Shown piece after piece: positions 6,711-23,485 of a DNA stretch of 24,000 nt. The translations under genes were made by a program, and so were the position numbers. Every line of letters starts with the position of its first letter. Position 1 is the stretch's first letter. Source of the DNA: Alteribacillus bidgolensis (GTDB lineage: Bacteria; Bacillota; Bacilli; Bacillales; Marinococcaceae); contig NZ_KZ614149.1 of assembly GCF_002886255.1 (NCBI RefSeq), positions 476,646-500,645 on the forward strand. Direction: 5' to 3'. The notes under the pieces were generated by a model, which saw nothing but the letters and a program-made list of their open reading frames with translations, ran no database searches and was not told the DNA's origin.

Positions 6711-7079
6711 ATGGAATGGAACGATTTAACAGACGGAGCTAAAGCTGTATTAGAACAAACGCGAAACATAAAAAATGACCACATACAGATCGTTGAATTT
6801 GAAGTTGGTTTTGAGCATGAATATGGAGAAGGTGAAAACACCTATACCGTTTCCATACAAGAAGAGGATTATGAGAATTTGAAACGTTTCACTAAGGAAA
6901 ATGAATATGGAGATAAATACCATATGGCAAGAAATAAAAACATCGTAAAGATCATTTTGCTAGAAAATGGAAAAATCCCCGATAATCTTTCGGAGTTTCC
7001 TGTTTTTCGTCAATATAAGTTTGATTACGTCCAAAAACAAGCTGAAAAAGCCGAGGAAGTTAATACAGAAGAAGATTGA
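6711..7079 (+). CDS. Hypothetical acidic cytoplasmic protein (122 aa)
   Basis: Clean ORF with GAGGAG 11 nt upstream and a candidate extended -10 promoter (TGaTATAAT, 6647-6655). No family recognised; no TM or signal sequence; Glu/Asp/Tyr-rich. Confidence 0.55.
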   Translation: MEWNDLTDGAKAVLEQTRNIKNDHIQIVEFEVGFEHEYGEGENTYTVSIQEEDYENLKRFTKENEYGDKYHMARNKNIVKIILLENGKIPDNLSEFPVFRQYKFDYVQKQAEKAEEVNTEED

Positions 7080-7129
7080 TTTGGAAAGTAATTGGTGTTT
7101 TTATTGTTTAAGCCATGGAGGTGAGAAGC

Positions 7130-7525
7130 ATGAATGAATACCGCACGATTGATTTGGAAGAAGAAAAGAATGAGTTAGGTAAAATAGAAATATCTCCTGA
7201 AGTCATTGAAGTTATTGCCGGACTCGCTGCATCTGAAGTGGAAGGAGTCCACTCTTTAAGAGGTAACTTTGCTGCAGGAGTTGTGGAGCGGCTCGGTCGT
7301 AAAAATCATGGCAAAGGCGTAAAAGTGGAACTTGGCGAAGAAGGGATTACTATTGAATTATCTGTAACGCTGCGTTACGGGGTTTCTGTACCGGAAGTGG
7401 CGAGAAATATTCAGACTAATATTCAACAGGCGCTTCAAACTATGACTTCTATTACTTTAGATTCCATTAACATTCATGTGCTCGGTATCCAATTTGAGGT
7501 GCAAGATGAAGAGGGAGAACAATAA
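7130..7525 (+). CDS. yqhY: Asp23/Gls24-family envelope stress protein
   Basis: KIEISPEVIEVIAGLAASEVEGVHSLRGNFAAGV...KGVKVELGEE is the typical Asp23 (DUF322) core, and the gene sits immediately upstream of nusB as B. subtilis yqhY does. ATG 7130 behind GGAGGTG is preferred over ATG 7115. Confidence 0.9.
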   Translation: MNEYRTIDLEEEKNELGKIEISPEVIEVIAGLAASEVEGVHSLRGNFAAGVVERLGRKNHGKGVKVELGEEGITIELSVTLRYGVSVPEVARNIQTNIQQALQTMTSITLDSINIHVLGIQFEVQDEEGEQ

Positions 7526-10410: not shown

Positions 10411-10642
10411 TAATTTGAAAAATGTATCGTTTGAAGAAGCTATGGAAAAATTAGAAGGCATTGTAGAAAAACTCGAAGAAGGTGAGGTTCCTTTAGAGCA
10501 GGCAATTGTTATGTATCAAGAGGGGATGAGCCTTTCTAACGTTTGTCATGAAAAACTGCAGCGTATTGAGAAACAGATGGACAGAGTAGTAGAGGAAGAT
10601 GGGGAAGTAAAACCTCTCTTATCTGAGGAGGATGAAGAGTGA
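10400..10642 (+). CDS. xseB: Exodeoxyribonuclease VII small subunit
   Basis: [45 protein letters not shown] is the XseB signature. A GTG 10400 (or ATG 10391) start gives ~80 aa. The ORF-track start at 10280 lies inside xseA and is an over-extension. Confidence 0.9.
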
Positions 10643-11526
10643 GCATCACAGAACTACAAGCTTTTATTTCTCAATTTAAAAATGAACTGGAAAAAAGACT
10701 TCCGGCATTTTTGGAAAAACTGGAATGTCCAGATACCTTGAAAGAAGCGATGCTTTATTCTGTTAATGCCGGTGGAAAAAGGGTCCGTCCTTTGTTAATG
10801 CTCGCGGCTGTCCAGTCATATCGTAACGTAGAAGAATCTGATTATGCGGTAGCTTGTGCAGTCGAAATGGTTCATACGTATTCTCTTATTCATGATGACT
10901 TACCGTCTATGGATGATGATGACTATCGGCGCGGAAAACCAACAAACCATAAAGTATTTGGAGAAGCATTTGCCGTTTTGGCTGGTGATGCCCTGCTAAC
11001 CAAAGCATTTGAAGTTATTAGTTCACTTAAAGAGTTAGAAAGTCATAACAAAATATTATTAATAAGAGAATTAGCCAAATCGGCAGGGGCTGAAGGAATG
11101 GTCGGTGGACAGGCTGCAGATTTAGAGGGAGAAGGAAAAGATCTTTCATTAGAGCAGCTTGAATATATTCATCACCATAAAACAGGAGATCTTTTAAGTT
11201 TTTCCGTTGTGGCAGGCGGGATATTAGGTGAAGCTCCAGACAATGATATGGATTATATCAGAGGGTTCGCCAGAGAGCTGGGCCTGGTTTTTCAAATTAA
11301 AGATGATATATTGGATATTGAAGGCGATTCAATAGAAATGGGAAAGGCAGCCGGTAGTGATGAATGCCGAGAAAAAAGCACATATCCAAGATTATTAACA
11401 CTTGATGGTGCCAAAGAAAAACTCATCACTCATGCGGATAATGCAAAAGAATACTTACGTTCTGTATCAGGTAATCCACTATTACTTGAGGATTTTATAC
11501 ATTATATTACGGAGCGGACCAAATAA
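10639..11526 (+). CDS. ispA: Farnesyl diphosphate synthase ((2E,6E)-FPP synthase)
   Basis: 295 aa with the first and second Asp-rich motifs [17 protein letters not shown] and [12 protein letters not shown] start overlaps the xseB stop. Confidence 0.95.
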
Positions 11527-11546: not shown

Positions 11547-11576
11547 TTGTGCTAAGTTTTTAGATCGTGGTATAAT
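11547..11576 (+). promoter_or_regulatory. Candidate sigma-A promoter (extended -10) for OLE RNA/oapA
   Basis: TTGTGC (11547-11552), an 18-nt spacer, then TGgTATAAT (11568-11576), located about 10 nt before the first OLE helix. No terminator separates it from ispA. Confidence 0.45.
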
Positions 11577-11583
11577 ATATATA

Positions 11584-12176
11584 CAAAATATCGGATGGTG
11601 CAGTATTCTAGTCGATTCTCCATTCTCGAGGGCGGGCCTAAAAATCCGCTGAAGGGCACATCGATGAAGTTCCTGATGCCGGCTCGAAGCGCCCAGCTTT
11701 GGGTCGGTGTTGGGAGTAAAGGTGTAAGGGCGATCCACAAAGGCATGTGGGCGTGAACCCTTTCACCGCGGAGGCCTCTTATTTTATGGGTAAATAAGAG
11801 GTAAGACCTGCAAGGCATGCCAGAGGGAAGGTATGTGTGCAGCGTAGCCTGCCTTGAGTGGAGCAGCGGGGAAGGTAAAGTCTAGGATGATTACCGTAGG
11901 CCAACGGATACTTTCCTATCACCTGAAACCTGCTCTGCAAAAGAGGCTAAGAGAGTGGCACGGAATTGTTGAGGAAAACTCCTAGACTGTTCATATAGAC
12001 GAATGAAGTGGATTGCAGTGTGTGCTGAGTGGCAATCCAGTCTGATGTCCGGCGACGGCATCAAGCTGTTTTTAAAGGGAAACCACCAAGGCGGCGACGC
12101 TTTGGCAAGCAGCTGGGAAATCCTACTGGACCTAAGACACAATGTTTACGCTTTATATCGGCCATCCGATATCTAC
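11584..12176 (+). ncRNA. ole: OLE (ornate, large, extremophilic) RNA, Rfam RF01071-type
   Basis: About 590 nt with no credible ORF. G+C is visibly above the AT-rich flanks. Many perfect helices are present: 11588-98/12162-72 (11 bp), 11721-30/11758-67 (10 bp, one U-U mismatch), 11775-84/11792-801 (10 bp), 11811-17/11850-56, 11879-87/11980-88 (9 bp) enclosing 11912-17/11972-77, and 12009-16/12032-39 (8 bp). The position ispA-[RNA]-small membrane protein-dxs is the hallmark OLE context. Ends are approximate. Confidence 0.85.
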
Positions 12177-12220
12177 ATATATTTATTTTAACCAACATTC
12201 TTAAAATATATTAGGTGATT

Positions 12221-12829
12221 ATGCAAATAATGAAAAGTATATGGAAAAATTCTATACGTTGGAGCGTTTTAATTGCCGTTATCACACTGGTGTTAGCGGC
12301 TATTTTTTCAATTATTTCCACTGCAGTTCTTAGTGGAGTAGACTGGGCCGTTGGAATGATTATAGTGCTTGTGATCGTTCTTGTTGGTGTGTTTTTTGAT
12401 ATGATTGGAGTAGCGGCCACCGCAGCGTCTGAAAAACCATTTCATTCGATGGCTTCAAAAAAGGTACCCGGTGCTTATCAAGCAATGAAGGTCACAAGAA
12501 ATGCAGATAAAGTAGCAAATTTTTGTGCGGATGTTATTGGTGATATATCCGGTGTAGTAAGCGGAACAGCAGCTTCAGCTGTTGTATTGCAATTTACATT
12601 TGCTTTAGGTTCTAGCGATGGAAGTACGCTTCAATTTATACTAGGTGTAATATTTACAGCTGTGGTAGCAGCATTAACAGTAGGTGGAAAAGCATTAGGC
12701 AAAACATTTGCCATTACTTTTTCTACCGCAATAATTTTTCAAGTTGGACGTATCTTTTATATACTTGAACATAAATTAAAAATTAAATTATTTAACAAAA
12801 AGACGACCAAGAAAACAAAGAAAGTTTAA
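12221..12829 (+). CDS. oapA: OLE-associated protein A (small polytopic membrane protein)
   Basis: About 200 aa with about four hydrophobic helices, a conserved-looking [13 protein letters not shown] segment and a Lys-rich C-terminal tail. It lies immediately 3' of the OLE element and 5' of dxs, as oapA does. The start is ambiguous (GTG 12215, ATG 12221 or ATG 12230; weak RBS AGGTGA 12213-18). Confidence 0.8.
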
Positions 12830-12855
12830 AACGACTGAAAGTGAGGGTTCGCTTC

Positions 12856-14745
12856 ATGGATTTAAAAACAATAAAGGACCCGGCAATTGTACAAGCATGC
12901 AGCCGACAAGAACTTGAAAGTCTAGCTCAACATATTAGAGAGTTTCTTATTCAGAAGCTGTCGGTTACAGGCGGCCATTTAGGCCCTAATTTAGGTGTAG
13001 TAGAATTAACACTTGCTTTACATCATCTGTATCAAACACCAAAAGACAAAATCATTTGGGATGTTGGGCACCAAGCTTATGTTCATAAGATACTGACTGG
13101 ACGAGCTGGTCAATTTGACAGTCTGCGTAAATATAAAGGATTGTGCGGTTTTCCAAAACGAGATGAGAGTGAACATGATGTTTGGGAAACTGGCCACAGC
13201 TCTACCTCACTTTCTGCAGCTATGGGGATGGCGGTAGCTAGAGACTTAAAAGGAAGTAAGGATCAAATAGCAGCTGTTATTGGTGACGGTGCTTTAACGG
13301 GTGGAATGGCACTTGAAGCATTAAACCATATCGGTCATGAACAAACAAATTTGACCATCATATTAAATGACAATGAAATGTCCATTGCACCAAATGTTGG
13401 AGCTCTTCACAGCATTCTTGGCCGTCTCAGAACAACAGGTAAATATCAAAAAGTTAAAGATGATATAGAATTTTTAATCAAAAAAATCCCTGCTTTTGGA
13501 GGGAGACTTGCGTCAACTGCTGAACGAGTAAAAGACAGTTTGAAATATTTACTTGTATCGGGAATGTTTTTTGAGGAAATGGGATTTACCTATCTTGGTC
13601 CTGTTGATGGTCATGATTTTGACGACCTGTTGTCTAATATTAAATATGGACGAGATACAAATGGTCCGGTAATCGTTCATGTGTTAACCAAAAAAGGAAA
13701 AGGCTATGCTCCAGCTGAAAACGATGCTAAAGGTACATGGCATGGGCTCGGGCCTTATAAAATCGAATCGGGAGAAGTAGTGAAAAAACCGGGACCTCCT
13801 GCATACAGTGCAGTATTTAGCAGTACATTACAAAGACTCGCTCATAAAGATGAGAGAATTGTAGCTTTAACAGCTGCTATGCCCGGCGGTACCAAACTGG
13901 ATCAATTTGGTGCTGAGTTTCCGGAAAGAATGTTTGATGTAGGTATAGCTGAACAGCATGCCACCACTATGGCAGGCGGATTAGCTACACAAGGGATGAA
14001 ACCTGTATTTGCCGTGTATTCCACGTTTTTGCAGCGAGGTTATGATCAACTTGTACATGATGTATGCAGGCAAAACTTGAATGTATTTTTTGCGATTGAC
14101 AGGGCCGGCCTTGTTGGAGCGGATGGAGAAACGCATCAAGGGGTTTTTGACATTGCTTATTTACGGCACCTTCCTAACATGAAAGTGTTAATGCCAAAAG
14201 ATGAGAATGAATTACAGCATATGATTTATACAGCTTTACGATATGATGACGGTCCCATTGCAGTTCGTTACCCCCGCGGTAATGGCTATGGAGTTAAAAT
14301 GGATGAGGAATTAAAAGAGTTAGAAATCGGAAAATGGGAAATCCTTAAGGATGGCAAAGATGCAACAATATTATCTTTTGGTACTATGCTTCCGGTAGCT
14401 GTTGAAGCAGCTAAGACGCTTTCTGAACAAAATGTCCATGTTCGTGTCGTAAATGCCAGATCGGCTAAGCCGTTAGATGCAGATCTTTTGAAAGAACTGC
14501 AGGAAGAAGGACAGCCTATTCTTACTTTGGAAGAAGCAGTTTTAAAGGGAAGTTTTGGAAGTGCAGTTCTTGAGCACTTTCATGATACAGGCTGTCATAA
14601 CATGGTAATAGAACGGATGGGCATACCAGATAGATACATTGAACATGGCAGTGTACCGGAATTATATGAGGAAATAGGATTGACTGCAGAAGAAGTTATA
14701 AATAAAATTTTTACACTTGTCCCTAGAAGACGGCAAAGGGCGTAG
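12856..14745 (+). CDS. dxs: 1-deoxy-D-xylulose-5-phosphate synthase
   Basis: MDLKTIKDP..., [14 protein letters not shown] and the TPP motif [18 protein letters not shown] 12856 behind GTGAGGG is preferred over the ORF-track GTG at 12841. Confidence 0.97.
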
Positions 14746-15579: not shown

Positions 15580-15756
15580 GTATTTCTCATCCCCCTGTTG
15601 AATGAATACCCCTTCAAATCCTAAACATATGTTTTCACCTTCTCTTCTCTATATTTTTACTCGTATGTTTGTATAAATATAAAAAATTAGTTATGATACA
15701 ATTAGCACTTTTACTATATAGCCAATGATATTGGAAGCATCAAGAGGAGGTTGCAC

Positions 15757-16206
15757 ATGAATAAAGGGCAGCGTCATATTAAAATTAGAGAATTAATAAC
15801 AGACTTGGATATAGAGACACAAGATGAATTGGTGGATCGGTTAAAAAAGGGCGGTTATAATGTAACTCAAGCAACTGTTTCTAGAGACATAAAAGAACTG
15901 CATCTGGTTAAAGTACCGATGATGGACGGAAGATATAAATACAGTTTGCCGGCAGATCAAAGATTTAATCCTTTACAAAAGTTAAAAAGAGCGCTTGTTG
16001 ACAGCTTTATCGGAGTTGATCAAGCTGACAATCTCATTGTTATGAAAACCCTTCCTGGAAATGCTAATGCTGTTGCGGTATTAATCGATAATTTAGATTG
16101 GGAAGAGATATTAGGTACCATTTGCGGAGACGATACGATATTAATTATTTGCCGTGATAAAAAACAAGCTGGTCCTATTGTGGATCGGTTCCTTGAAATG
16201 CTTTAA
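15757..16206 (+). CDS. argR: Arginine repressor
   Basis: [15 protein letters not shown]...[18 protein letters not shown], a winged-helix N-terminus with the GDDTILII C-terminal motif. ATG 15757 lies 6 nt after AGGAGG. Confidence 0.95.
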
Positions 16207-16231: not shown

Positions 16232-17953
16232 ATGCTCGAAGAACTTTCAATAAAAAATTTCGCTATTATTGAAGAATTAACCGTTCCATTCGGTGAAGGA
16301 CTGACAGTATTAACTGGAGAAACAGGTGCCGGTAAATCAATTATTATCGATGCTATTGGCTTATTAATTGGAGGGCGCAGTTCAGTAGAATATGTACGTC
16401 ACGGGGAAAAACGTGCAGAAATAGAAGGATTGTTTCGAATTAATACTTCACATCCTTCAAGAAAGAAGCTTGAGGATGCCGGCATTGAAGTAGAAGAAGA
16501 TATGGTGGTATTAAGAAGAGATATTACAGATCAAGGAAAAAGCGTTTGCCGTATAAATGGAAAATTAGTAACACTAGCTATACTGCGGGAAACAGGACAA
16601 TCTTTAGTCGATATACATGGTCAACATGAACATCAGGAATTAATGCAGCCAGAAAAACATATTACAATGCTTGATCGTTTCGCAGGAAAAAAACTGTATG
16701 AAACACTTCAGGATTACAAATCGCGGTATCAAACCTTTACAAAACTTCAATCAGAATTAGAAAAATGGAAAGAAAACGATCAAGAAACGGCAAACCGCCT
16801 TGATTTTATCCAATACCAATTAAATGAGATAGAAGCAGCAAGTTTAGTCCCTGGAGAAGATGAAGAATTAGTGAAAGAAAGACATATTTTATCGAATAGT
16901 GAAAAATTATTCAGTCAGCTGAATAACACCTATGAAAGCCTCTATGGTGAAGGAAAAGCATTAGACTGGGCAGGGCTGGCTATGTCACATTCTGAAGATG
17001 CTGCAGCTATTGATAGTGACATGGAGAAAGTTAATGAATCCATTCATACAGCTTATTATATGCTTGAAGAAGCAGCTTTCTCATTAAGAAACCATGTAGA
17101 CTCTTTATTATTTGATCCTGAACGTTTAAATGAAATTGAAGCAAGGTTAGAGGAAATTAAAAAGTTAAAACGAAAATACGGCAATTCTGTCATGGAAATA
17201 CTTGAATTTTCCTCAAAAATTGAAGAAGAAATGGAGCACCTTACCAATAAGGACGAAAAAATTCAGGAATGTCAAGAACAGCTAAAAATAGCAGCTCTAG
17301 ATTTAAAAGCAGAAGCTGATACGTTAACGGATTTGCGGTATCAAGCTGGAAAAGAGCTATCGGACAAAGTGAAAACGGAACTTAAAGAGCTGTATATGGA
17401 TAAAGCTGAGATGGAAGTAAACGTAAAAAAATTAAAAAAAGGAAAGCAGTACGAATGGGAGAATGGACGAACCATTTTTAATGACAATGGAAAAGATAAA
17501 GTTGAATTTTTAATGGCCACCAATGCCGGCGAACCTTTAAAGCCACTTGCCAAAGTCGCCTCTGGCGGAGAAATATCAAGAATTATGCTTGCCATGAAAA
17601 CGATTTTGTCAGGTTTCCAGCACGTTACCTCCCTAATATTTGATGAAGTGGACACCGGAGTAAGCGGACGTGTGGCCCAAGCCATCGCACAAAAAATATA
17701 CCACGTTTCGGTTGGTTCTCAAGTATTATGCATTACCCATCTTCCGCAAGTAGCTGCGATGGCTGATAACCATTTATTCATCGAAAAAAGAGAGAAGGAA
17801 AACCGGGTAATAACTACTGTAAAACCAATAGATGGAATGAAGAAAGCGGATGAAATTGCCAGAATGATATCAGGGGTAGAAATAACGGAATTGACACGAA
17901 AAAATGCAAATGAATTATTGGCTATGGCCGAGAAGATTAAAACCAAATCATGA
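16232..17953 (+). CDS. recN: DNA repair protein RecN
   Basis: MLEELSIKNFAIIE..., Walker A GETGAGKS, a long coiled coil and the C-terminal LIFDEVDTGVSG. ATG 16232 behind GAGGTG gives 573 aa. The ORF-track start at 16154 overlaps argR and is an over-extension. Confidence 0.96.
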   Translation: MLEELSIKNFAIIEELTVPFGEGLTVLTGETGAGKSIIIDAIGLLIGGRSSVEYVRHGEKRAEIEGLFRINTSHPSRKKLEDAGIEVEEDMVVLRRDITDQGKSVCRINGKLVTLAILRETGQSLVDIHGQHEHQELMQPEKHITMLDRFAGKKLYETLQDYKSRYQTFTKLQSELEKWKENDQETANRLDFIQYQLNEIEAASLVPGEDEELVKERHILSNSEKLFSQLNNTYESLYGEGKALDWAGLAMSHSEDAAAIDSDMEKVNESIHTAYYMLEEAAFSLRNHVDSLLFDPERLNEIEARLEEIKKLKRKYGNSVMEILEFSSKIEEEMEHLTNKDEKIQECQEQLKIAALDLKAEADTLTDLRYQAGKELSDKVKTELKELYMDKAEMEVNVKKLKKGKQYEWENGRTIFNDNGKDKVEFLMATNAGEPLKPLAKVASGGEISRIMLAMKTILSGFQHVTSLIFDEVDTGVSGRVAQAIAQKIYHVSVGSQVLCITHLPQVAAMADNHLFIEKREKENRVITTVKPIDGMKKADEIARMISGVEITELTRKNANELLAMAEKIKTKS

Positions 17954-20455: not shown

Positions 20456-20635
20456 TTAATTTTGATCAGAAATGTATGACTCAAAAAGCCGTGAAACCAT
20501 GGAAGAACTTTCTGTATAAGGTCGTAATTGATTAATTCTTTTAGACGAAGGTTCGTATTGAATCACATATTGTTCACCATTATACGATGCCAGATACATA
20601 TCAAACCCATGTCTAGATTCAATAAACTGAAACAA
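20456..20635 (-). CDS. Hypothetical small protein (59 aa), absent from the ORF track (below 60 aa)
   Basis: - strand TTG start (20635) lies 6 nt after a strong RBS AAGGGGGA (20649-20642). Hand translation gives MFQFIESRHGFDMYLASYNGEQYVIQYEPSSKRINQLRPYTESSSMVSRLFESYISDQN with a TAA stop at 20458-20456. Composition is protein-like; no family recognised. Confidence 0.4.
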   Translation of the reverse strand: MFQFIESRHGFDMYLASYNGEQYVIQYEPSSKRINQLRPYTESSSMVSRLFESYISDQN

Positions 20636-20922
20636 TTTGGTTCCCCCTTATCATTTTTCGTTGGTACTTCCACTTTACAGTTTAAATTCCTCGAAAAAAA
20701 TTTTTTCTTTATAATTATCTTTTTCCTCATTCCTATATCTATGCATGTAATCCCTCCGATTTGGACCATACTAGAAAAAGGTATTAGAAAAACTTGGCTT
20801 GGCACCACGGTCTGTGGCACGAAATTGGTACGTCCTGCATGCTGGAAGCCTTAGTCTTTTCTTATACTTGATTCCTTTAGAAAAGTCACTTTCCTAAAGT
20901 ATAAAAAAGGGGTGAAAGCAGC

Positions 20923-22035: not shown

Positions 22036-22703
22036 AAACAAGTGTTATTATTCCAGCTTATAATGAAGAGCGACATTTAAAATCAACATTGCAAACTCTA
22101 CGCAAAGCTGGCTGGGCAAACGAATTAATTGGAGTAAACGATGGGAGTTCTGATTCTACTGGAAGAATTATGGAAAAATATTGTGATGTATCGATTTCAT
22201 TTATTAAAAATCATGGAAAAACAGCTGCAGCAAAAGCAGGATGGTTAGCCAGCAAAGGAGAGTTTATTGTAATTTTAGATGCAGATTTAAGAGACAGTGC
22301 AATATACGGCAGCGAATTATTATATCCATTGGAATCAAATGAAGCTGACTTAGTTATTGGTACAGTAATGGGAAGTGGAAAAAATGGTTTTGGACTTGTT
22401 AAGAGAAGGGTACAGCGTCTTATTCATAGAAGAAGTGGTCTGCTTTTACAAATGCCATTGTCAGGACAAAGAGCTTTTCGAAGAAAACATATTGAACATT
22501 ATCATCAATTACAGGCAGAAGGTTTCGGTCTAGAGACGATGATGACATTAAAAGCTGTAGAAGAAGGATTTAGAATTAAAGAAGTAGAAGTGCCATTTGT
22601 ACATGACGGCAAAGGATGGGGAATTCAAGGTATGTGTCACCGTGCCAAGCAATGGCTGGAGGTGGAAAGGTGCCTATGGAAATATGGAAAATCATACTCT
22701 TAA
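22032..22703 (+). CDS. Family 2 glycosyltransferase (polyprenyl-phosphate sugar synthase-like)
   Basis: 223 aa with the GT-A signatures VIIPAYNEE, NDGSSDST and ILDADL. GTGA start/stop overlap with the steA-like gene. Confidence 0.85.
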   Translation: MKTSVIIPAYNEERHLKSTLQTLRKAGWANELIGVNDGSSDSTGRIMEKYCDVSISFIKNHGKTAAAKAGWLASKGEFIVILDADLRDSAIYGSELLYPLESNEADLVIGTVMGSGKNGFGLVKRRVQRLIHRRSGLLLQMPLSGQRAFRRKHIEHYHQLQAEGFGLETMMTLKAVEEGFRIKEVEVPFVHDGKGWGIQGMCHRAKQWLEVERCLWKYGKSYS

Positions 22704-23485
22704 GTGCAATGGTGCCGATCTTTTGGCCTGTATTGAGAAACAGCTCTGTAAAATTTGGGTGGACGGCTGTTAATTATAAAAATATGTACATTCCATTTAC
22801 ACTCGGAATTGTTTTGTTACTTTTTGTTTTTAATTTTATTCTTTTATGGCCACCCGATCATTTATTAGCTTTTATGGTATATATAGTAGGAATTTGGACC
22901 GCCGGATGGATTGATGATGTACGTGGAAGTGATTATCCAAAAGGAATAAAAGGACATATGTATTTTTTTATAAAAAAAGGAGAGTGGACGACAGGGCTTA
23001 CAAAAATTGTAATTATTGTCATTTCTGCAAGTGTCAGTCTCCTTTTAGCAGAAGCAACGATGCAAATAGGTACGGTGATTACATTTATGTTGTTCGTATT
23101 ATCGCCACATGTGTGTAATTCTCTCGATACACGACCACTTAGAGTTTGGAAATGGGTAAGCATTCATGTTTTAATGTTGCTTATATTTCTGTCTGTAAGG
23201 CCGGTGCCAGGCATGCTTTTCTATATAGTGGTGGCAATGGGGGTATGGGGGTATTTAGAAATAACGAAAAAAGGAATGCTTGGAGATAATGGAGCTGCTT
23301 TGGCCGGAGGAATCATAGCATGGGTGGGAATGCAGTTTTTTCCCTTTAGTATTCAACTTTTTTTTATGGGCATTCTTGTTGGTATTACTTATTTAGCAGA
23401 AAAAATTTCGATTCATGCTTTTATTGAAAAAGTTCATATTTTGAAGGAAATTGATCATTTGGGGAGAAGGGAAAGGATGGAATAA
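22676..23485 (+). CDS. Short, divergent polyprenyl-phosphate N-acetylhexosamine-1-phosphate transferase-like membrane protein (MraY/WecA superfamily, GT4)
   Basis: Polytopic membrane protein with GWIDDVRG (the DD motif), NSLD and MLGDNGAALAGG (compare GDxGSxxLG). ATG 22676 behind GGAGGTGG is preferred; the ORF-track start at 22616 overlaps the GT2 gene by 88 nt. Confidence 0.6.
   Translation: MEIWKIILLSAMVPIFWPVLRNSSVKFGWTAVNYKNMYIPFTLGIVLLLFVFNFILLWPPDHLLAFMVYIVGIWTAGWIDDVRGSDYPKGIKGHMYFFIKKGEWTTGLTKIVIIVISASVSLLLAEATMQIGTVITFMLFVLSPHVCNSLDTRPLRVWKWVSIHVLMLLIFLSVRPVPGMLFYIVVAMGVWGYLEITKKGMLGDNGAALAGGIIAWVGMQFFPFSIQLFFMGILVGITYLAEKISIHAFIEKVHILKEIDHLGRRERME

Follow-up and report, generated by a model that had tools for sequence, protein, structure and literature searches.

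The RNAs of the OLE (ornate, large, extremophilic) family are among the largest and best-conserved noncoding RNAs of bacteria for which a biochemical function is still to be discovered. Their description dates from 2006, the family has an Rfam model, and OLE has lately been proposed to cross the membrane in the form of a dimer. In the cell, the RNA forms a membrane ribonucleoprotein (RNP) with the proteins OapA, OapB and OapC and is connected to phenotypes under alcohol, cold and Mg2+ stress (PMC12265935, PMC9723947). A catalogue of OLE RNAs from GTDB R08-RS214 covers 2,846 assemblies (PMC11332333). Here, we analysed 24,000 nucleotides (nt) of contig NZ_KZ614149.1 of Alteribacillus bidgolensis, termed the window in the following. 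A first reading of the window by a model that had only the letters and a list of open reading frames (ORFs), the sequence-only reading, had proposed an OLE RNA locus between ispA and dxs, and its summary of the OLE biology agrees with the literature cited above. Our analysis shows that the segment is almost certainly the gene for an OLE RNA of an Alteribacillus-like, halophilic member of the Bacillaceae, and no evidence against this identification was found. Since the family has long been known, is covered by an Rfam model and is catalogued in so many assemblies, the identification of this ordinary copy is a rediscovery. One more copy adds no answer to the question of what OLE does.

Identity and consensus fold of the RNA

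The whole window was scanned against Rfam 15. The only match was to RF01071 (OLE) at positions 11579-12181 of the + strand, a length of 603 nt, with 501.8 bits and an E value of 1.2e-144. The match spans the model positions 1-616 without truncation, and the gathering threshold of the family is 50 bits. A search with this covariance model was the check that the sequence-only reading had proposed for its claim. When 20 of the relatives were checked with Rfam, they scored 474-537 bits, and the copy in the window is therefore typical. In the window, 142 of the 151 RF01071 model pairs form standard pairs, among them 19 G.U pairs. Since G.U pairs turn into A.C on the opposite strand, the RNA is fixed to the + strand. 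We conclude that the OLE of the window is a full-length, typical RF01071 member on the + strand. Its functional core probably extends from the 5' strand to the 3' strand of helix P1 (11588-12172). The full-length match and the gene order support the assignment that had first been made from size, architecture and context. Any Rfam-based annotation finds this RNA. Protein-only annotation leaves about 700 nt blank here or fills them with spurious ORFs.

The relatives were obtained by scanning one genome per species with an alignment of OapA, the small membrane protein encoded downstream of the RNA. This yielded 80 loci (L001-L080), and in all of them OLE immediately precedes oapA on the same strand. 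The structure was tested on a MAFFT alignment of 79 Bacillaceae OLEs with Fisher tests that were not corrected for phylogeny. The consensus (Rfam) pairs were formed in 86.4% of the cells, compared to 40-47% in controls that were slid by 1-3 columns. Compensatory changes were observed at 109 of the 151 consensus pairs. The covariation in relatives, which had been named beforehand as a second check, thus supports the consensus fold.

The sequence itself was compared with dinucleotide shuffles. The 593-nt core has a minimum free energy of -236 kcal/mol versus -191 +/- 6 kcal/mol for the shuffles (z = -7.3). Perfect Watson-Crick helices of 8 bp were found 11 times in the core versus 2.3 times in the shuffles, and those of 9 bp 6 times versus 0.58 times. 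Single perfect helices also arise by chance in such a sequence, about 9.5 of 7 bp and 0.6 of 9 bp being expected. The G+C content is 0.50-0.53 inside the segment versus 0.31-0.42 in the flanks, as had been noticed by eye.

The helix names used here were taken from the text of PMC12265935, not from its figure, and P1, P10 and P11 were named by their position or order. In the published model, P1, P2 and P10-P15 belong to 'domain 2' (PMC12265935). The long-range stems P1, P2 and P3/P3.1 are all fully paired in the window. P1 connects 11588-11598 with 12162-12172 by 11 of 11 Watson-Crick pairs and has a conserved core at 11592-98/12162-68. In 78 sequences, the inner 6 pairs of P1 were approximately 100% paired with exchanges between AU, GC and GU, and the 7th pair covaries, whereas the outer 4 pairs are specific to the lineage of the window. 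For two of the P1 core pairs, the Fisher p values were 4e-11 and 1.5e-18, and the covariation of the P1 core and P3 gave values from 3e-7 to 6e-19. The 5' strand of P2 at 11600-11611 (GCAGU AUU CUAG) pairs with 11982-11990 (CUAG ACUGU) by 9 of 9 pairs, 11600-04/11986-90 and 11608-11/11982-85. P2 was 99.7-100% paired in the relatives and is invariant, hence its covariation cannot be judged. P3 (11613-19 with 11962-68) closes domain 1 together with P3.1 (11620-27 with 11951-58), and all 15 pairs of the two stems are formed in the window. In the relatives, P3 was paired to 92% and showed compensatory changes in 5 of its 7 pairs (p down to 6e-19), and P3.1 was 65% paired on the MAFFT alignment with covariation at 7 of its 8 pairs. 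The long P3/P3.1 stem has been proposed to span the membrane (PMC12265935). Taken together, these results show that the RNA adopts the conserved architecture of the OLE family, including the long-range stems P1, P2 and P3/P3.1.

The structure line of RF01071 in the cmscan output leaves P1, P2 and P3/P3.1 unannotated and draws the ends as unpaired. Since P1 and P3 covary strongly in the 79 sequences, the RF01071 model under-uses the long-range structure. The stems P1-P3 are omitted from the Rfam line although the covariation evidence for them is clear here.

The remaining helices of domain 1 follow the consensus on the same strand. The P4 hairpin (11631-11650) has 6 of 6 pairs and was 99.6% paired in the relatives. 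The P5/P5.1 hairpin (11670-11716) forms 20 of 20 pairs and was 96% paired, with 9 covarying pairs. P6 and P6.1 (11721-30/11758-67 and 11735-39/11746-50) were 88% and 100% paired, respectively. P7 (11775-84 with 11792-801) has 10 of 10 pairs and is short in this lineage, with a covarying stem base; in relatives, the P7 region is 20-45 nt longer, and its variable length has already been published (PMC11332333). In P8 (11808-21 with 11830-42), 12 of 13 pairs are formed; this hairpin was 79% paired in the relatives and 11 of the 13 pairs covary. The RF01071 pairs of the P9 arm are 11851-55/11943-47, 11858-68/11929-38, 11874-78/11919-23 and 11883-97/11904-18, and its outer stems were 81-92% paired.

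Two small hairpins are found beside the P2 3' strand, 11971-73/11979-81 (GAG/CUC) and 11991-93/11997-99, which were 100% and 81% paired in the relatives. From their order, these hairpins within 11971-11999 would be P10 and P11. The core of domain 2 (12000-12160) follows with 46 of 47 pairs in the window. It contains P12 (12000-10/12149-60), P12.1 (12019-23/12137-41), P12.2 (12036-41/12125-30), P13 (12043-51/12056-63) with a bulged U12048 and a GCGA loop at 12052-55, P14 (12064-71/12107-14) and P14.1 (12085-93/12098-106). The stems of this core were 91.5-100% paired in the relatives with extensive compensatory change.

The sequence-only reading had listed ten helices. All ten are complementary at their positions, but four of them are not real OLE helices. 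They had been called perfect, which is inexact since 11721-30/11758-67 has one mismatch and 12086-91/12100-05 one G.U pair. Five of the ten are consensus stems, namely 11721-30/11758-67 and 11735-39/11746-50 (P6/P6.1), P7 (11775-84/11792-801), the tip of P9 (11894-97/11904-07) and 12086-91/12100-05 in P14.1. The 11-bp helix 11588-98/12162-72 is also real, though absent from the Rfam line; its core is conserved and covarying, and its position fits the published P1.

Three of the other helices, 11811-17/11850-56, 11879-87/11980-88 and 11912-17/11972-77, were paired in 50-63% of the cells with almost no compensatory change. They conflict with the covarying P8, the covarying P9 or the invariant P2 3' strand and were rejected. 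In the first of them, the 5' strand belongs to P8, so that it clashes with the consensus. The fourth, 12009-16/12032-39 (GGAUUGC/GCAAUCC), was considered as an alternative pairing for an apparent A-U to G-C swap in the window and was also rejected. It looks conserved (85% paired) because it is nearly invariant. Its two variable columns are independent, with 4 G-C observed versus 3.5 expected, 13 A.C mismatches and a Fisher p of 0.74. The competing P12.2 is resolved in the OapB-bound crystal structure (PMC7936274). The helix map was incomplete as well and had missed P2, P3/P3.1, P4, the 20-pair P5, P8, the outer P9, P12, P12.1, P12.2, P13 and P14. With 4 of 10 wrong here, helix lists made from one sequence are unreliable even within a real structured RNA.

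Interaction motifs, promoter and neighbouring genes

The motifs that the literature ties to function are each present in the window. In structures solved by cryo-electron microscopy (cryo-EM), the dimer contacts are the P4 loop, the L5.1/L6.1 pair and the GGCC in P9 (PMC12286853, PMC12265935), all of which are found at the expected positions here. The A-rich P4 loop CUAAAAAU at 11638-45, a contact described in PMC12265935, was invariant in 79 of 79 OLEs. CGCCCAG (11690-96), the L5.1 loop, was conserved in 77 of 79; it forms a kissing contact with L6.1 of the other RNA in the dimer. The L6.1 loop CAAAGGCAUG is present within P6/P6.1 (11721-11767). The distal P9 loop AGGCCA (L9.3) exposes the GGCC palindrome at 11899-11902, which was found in 66 of 78 relatives and makes a symmetric kissing-loop contact in the dimer (PMC12286853).

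This palindrome is absent from 12 of the 78 Bacillaceae OLEs. In addition, the distal P9 is shortened in 11 of the 78, with 42-61 nt versus 72-94 nt in the rest. The short forms occur in the loci L007, L011, L013, L021, L034, L039, L042, L044, L051, L060 and L063, with P9 at about 2600-2700 of each locus. Their hosts are Alkalicoccus, Alteribacter, Salisediminibacterium, Salipaludibacillus and metagenome-assembled genomes, and the RF01071 scores are still 474-518 bits. Shorter P7-P9 variants have been published for other clades (PMC11332333).

The protein sites were then compared with the published ones. The published OapA sites are palindromes within or close to P2 and P4a (PMC12265935). The P4a/J4a-5 segment CAUCGAUGAAG at 11659-11669 combines the palindrome AUCGAU with the strand GAUGAAG. 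By their position, CUAG in P2 and AUCGAU in P4a may be the OapA-site palindromes, with AUCGAU as a candidate second site. CAUCGAUG was present in 71 of 79 OLEs, and GAUGAAG (11663-69) was invariant in all 79. The roles of this segment, including GAUGAAG as a strand of the OapC kink-turn (k-turn), have been described (PMC12265935, PMC9723947, PMC12286853). Both strands of the putative k-turn at the base of P5, GAUGAAG and CCGCGGAGG at 11766-74, are present and conserved as read from the sequence alone. The partner strand in the OapC site is disputed and has been placed in J5/6 or J6/7 (PMC9723947 versus PMC12286853). P13 reads UGAUG-U-CCG GCGA CGG CAUCA and thus has a GNRA loop and a single bulged U. 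Its loop was GNRA in all five of the commonest variants, which cover the 79 sequences. The GNRA tetraloop and the single-nucleotide bulge of P13 are the determinants for OapB (PMC7936274). A second GCGA loop caps P14.1.

A probable promoter of the ole gene was found at 11547-11576 (+). It consists of the -35-like hexamer TTGTGC (11547-52), a spacer of 18 nt and the extended -10 element TGgTATAAT (11568-76). Transcription is predicted to start at about 11583-85, just ahead of the P1 5' strand. In 77 of 79 related loci, a -10-like hexamer was located 18-29 nt upstream of the conserved anchor GUAUUCUAGUC. Most of these elements carry the TG of an extended -10, and a -35-like TTGAG or TTGTG is often present. 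The promoter of the window was not listed by the consensus scan because its -35 element matches at only 3 of 6 positions. OLE therefore appears to have a promoter of its own besides any read-through from ispA, as far as these elements indicate. A point against its being the only one comes from Halalkalibacterium (Bacillus) halodurans, where the OLE cluster is transcribed as one polycistronic RNA and processed (PMC12265935), so that OLE may have further sources besides the promoter found here.

In the terminator scan, no terminator was found between OLE and oapA. The sole terminator-like site nearby, 12043-12073, is located inside OLE. It was rejected as a terminator since it corresponds to P13 and the P14 5' strand with its U-run, which are covarying internal stems. 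The missing terminator and the spacing of 12 nt between oapA and dxs would fit polycistronic transcription and processing. A further terminator-like site at 12698-12712, a 6-bp palindrome containing G+C with T-runs on both sides, was flagged on both strands. This probably incidental site falls in the 3' part of oapA.

The gene order in the window is efp, spoIIIAA-AH, Asp23/yqhY, nusB, folD, xseA, xseB, ispA, OLE, oapA, dxs, tlyA, ahrC/argR, recN, spoIVB and spo0A. This is the canonical OLE context, and the sequence-only reading had given its central part, xseAB-ispA-RNA-small membrane protein-dxs-tlyA, correctly. The upstream neighbour ispA (10639-11526, +) encodes farnesyl diphosphate synthase (NF045485, 404.7 bits), and its stop at 11526 was read correctly as well. 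The next credible start had been put at about 12221, where an ATG is located. The N-termini of the homologs align to the second ATG at 12230, which is the better choice; the longest ORF begins at GTG 12215. From ATG 12230, oapA (12230-12829, +) encodes 199 amino acid residues, with the ribosome-binding site AGGUGA at 12213-18, and starts 49 nt past OLE. dxs (12841-14745, +; TIGR00204, 914 bits) begins 12 nt past the oapA stop.

Judged by its sequence, the small membrane protein is orthologous to OapA. It is 95% identical to a protein of Alteribacillus sp., 79-84% to Salibacterium proteins and 68% to P0048 of H. halodurans. The search gave 4,588 homologs at E <=0.001, with E values of 2.5e-92 to 1e-68 among the 120 matches listed. 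No curated names were found among these homologs, no Pfam family scored above threshold in the 199 residues, and a search against solved structures with OapA gave no match. In a crude hydropathy window, hydrophobic segments were observed at about 7-41, 27-68, 102-120 and 131-157; a fifth one at 161-179 is borderline. The C-terminal tail is rich in lysine, with 9 K/R in the last 25 residues. By hydropathy, the protein thus agrees with what has been described for OapA, a small protein that is predicted to cross the membrane with four helices and to have a basic cytoplasmic cluster (PMC12265935, PMC11332333).

The nearest genome is that of Alteribacillus sp. YIM 98480, with 94.1% DNA identity over 6.6 kb and 98.7% in OLE. 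The next nearest are A. persepolensis, Salibacterium spp. and 'Bacillus' piscicola. Alteribacillus and Salibacterium are genera of halophiles. With the sporulation genes spoIIIA, spoIVB and spo0A in the window, the host fits the extremophilic or anaerobic Bacillota.

Several other observations were made on the neighbouring genes. ahrC/argR (15751-16206) and Asp23/yqhY (7115-7525) are among the genes listed as OLE-linked by the Breaker laboratory; ArgR is an unpublished candidate for a protein partner of OLE, and yqhY is a high-ranking associated gene (PMC12265935). Between spoIIIAH and Asp23/yqhY, an ORF of 122 codons (6711-7079, +) had no Pfam or NCBIfam match. In B. subtilis, this position is presumably occupied by accB and accC, both of which are absent here. 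The longest ORF of recN begins at GTG 16154 and shares its first 53 nt with the end of ahrC. Since the RecN model aligns from residue 27, the true start of recN is probably near 16232. Downstream of spo0A, two ORFs on the + strand, 20528-20854 (108 residues) and 22616-23485 (289 residues), had no NCBIfam match; they flank the steA and glycosyltransferase genes, one on each side.

Proposed mechanism and alternatives

The mechanism considered here is based on the work on the OLE RNAs of H. halodurans and Clostridium (PMC12265935, PMC12286853, PMC7936274, PMC9723947, PMC11332333). By analogy to these, the RNA of about 590 nt would dimerise through the A-rich loop of P4, the kissing of L5.1 with L6.1 and the P9 loop with GGCC. 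At the palindromic sites near P2 and P4a, it would bind OapA, a membrane protein of four helices. This binding would hold OLE at the membrane, or possibly across it via P3/P3.1. OLE would also recruit OapB by the GNRA loop and the bulge of P13, OapC by the k-turn at the base of P5, and bS21. We consider it most likely that OapA would form a CNNM-like transporter for divalent cations and that OLE would be its regulatory and sensor module. The RNA could then take the place of the CBS and CorC domains, which are present in MpfA but not in OapA. In this way, the RNP may couple Mg2+ homeostasis and the stress caused by alcohol, cold and the carbon source to responses of the cell (PMC11332333, PMC12265935).

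A distant resemblance of OapA to CNNM has already been described (PMC11332333). Among 22 OapA homologs, 16 gave a CNNM (PF01595) match at E <=1, with a best E of 1e-5. The resemblance is distant only, and OapA is not a PF01595 member by the Pfam threshold. Several points weigh against the transporter mechanism. The OapA of the window matches CNNM below the threshold, with 17.5 versus 28.4 bits and an E value of 0.0034. oapB, oapC and mpfA were not found within the 24-kb window, which cannot show the rest of the genome. Finally, the literature has not settled on a biochemical function of OLE, and ribozyme, signalling-hub and transmembrane models are found there side by side.

According to one of these models, OLE is primarily a ribozyme, with c-di-AMP synthesis floated as an example, and OapA is a mere anchor (PMC12265935, PMC11332333). 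The conservation of the RNA is in line with this hypothesis. Over the 79 OLEs, 201 positions (33%) were invariant and 292 (48%) at least 90% conserved, many of them in junctions and not in helices, and the known large ribozymes are alike in this respect. However, the literature up to 2025 describes no catalytic activity of OLE, whose biochemical function is undiscovered there. For many of the unpaired nucleotides that are conserved, a role in dimer contacts or protein sites now offers an explanation (PMC12286853, PMC7936274, PMC9723947), and we regard the ribozyme as unlikely.

Could OLE be a cis-acting 5' leader of the riboswitch or attenuator type that controls oapA-dxs, and not a free RNA? 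The short distance to oapA on the same strand, the lack of a terminator between them, the adjacency kept in every one of the 80 genomes and the location of the promoter upstream of the RNA and not between the RNA and oapA would be expected for a leader. Yet no expression platform is visible. The terminator-like P13 with its U-run is an internal covarying stem, and the fold is already closed, by the 3' strand of P1, ahead of the ribosome-binding site of oapA. Moreover, the OLE of H. halodurans is among the most abundant RNAs of the cell, binds OapA and is localised at the membrane (PMC12265935). A leader function is therefore extremely unlikely.

The least tenable alternative is that one or several small proteins are encoded here. 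The gap does contain exactly five ORFs of at least 60 residues (61-88 residues), which overlap on both strands as the sequence-only reading had stated, but they are free of in-frame stops in only 3-40 of 78 relatives, the length differences among relatives are mostly not multiples of three, no ribosome-binding site was noted, the composition is atypical for proteins (R+P+C+W make up 0.21-0.24 of four ORFs and 0.11 of the other one) and the conservation tracks base-pairing and not codons, so that a coding function of these ORFs was rejected and is effectively refuted.

Comparison with known systems

We then compared the OLE of the window with the systems described so far. ROOL, GOLLD and the raiA motif are likewise large structured noncoding RNAs without an assigned function, and they form RNA-only multimers (PMC12286853). 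They are unrelated to OLE in sequence and structure, are not membrane-associated and have no dedicated membrane protein encoded next to them. In the Rfam 15 scan, these three families had no match in the window.

The Mg2+ transporters of the MpfA/CorB/CorC type, which consist of CNNM, CBS and CorC domains, are the proposed all-protein counterparts of the OLE RNP. OapA is weakly CNNM-like. In contrast to the transporters, OapA with its 199 residues has no CBS and CorC domains, and its partner is an RNA. Knock-outs of OLE and of MpfA are both Mg2+ sensitive, and the two genes anticorrelate among genomes (PMC11332333).

The OLE RNAs of C. acetobutylicum and C. botulinum were seen as dimers by cryo-EM in 2025. 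All dimer-contact elements reported for them are present in the window, a likeness that refers to the reported elements and not to a sequence comparison. Unlike these anaerobes, the host of the window is an aerobic, halophilic member of the Bacillaceae. By analogy, the OLE of the window would be expected to dimerise as well.

The OLE of H. halodurans is the experimental model of RF01071. It shares with the window the full-length type, the upstream neighbour ispA and the downstream neighbours oapA-dxs-tlyA. The OapB determinants of P13 (GNRA loop and bulge) and the invariant GAUGAAG are common to both, and the OapA proteins are 68% identical. In the lineage of the window, comprising Alteribacillus, Salibacterium and 'Bacillus' piscicola, P7 is shorter and the base of P9 is built differently. 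J7/8 is 2 nt shorter, with GGUA--AGACCUG compared to GGUAUGAACCUG in H. halodurans. P1 is extended to 11 bp, and P13 has the loop GCGA, not GUGA.

Taken together, the peculiarities of this lineage could be the marks of a functionally distinct RNP sub-type in the halophilic Alteribacillus/Salibacterium: a minimal P7, a short J7/8, a base of P9 that has been rebuilt, a P1 of 11 bp and a perfect 9-bp complement of 11879-87 in the P9 arm to 11980-88 in the P2 3' strand. If so, an alternative pairing of P9 with P2 could, for example, act as a switch that turns domain 1 away from domain 2. This 9-bp complement is common only to the window and its closest relative L001, and we consider such a sub-type very unlikely. 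In conclusion, the OLE of the window belongs with that of H. halodurans to the full-length type, and the differences between the two touch no known functional determinant.

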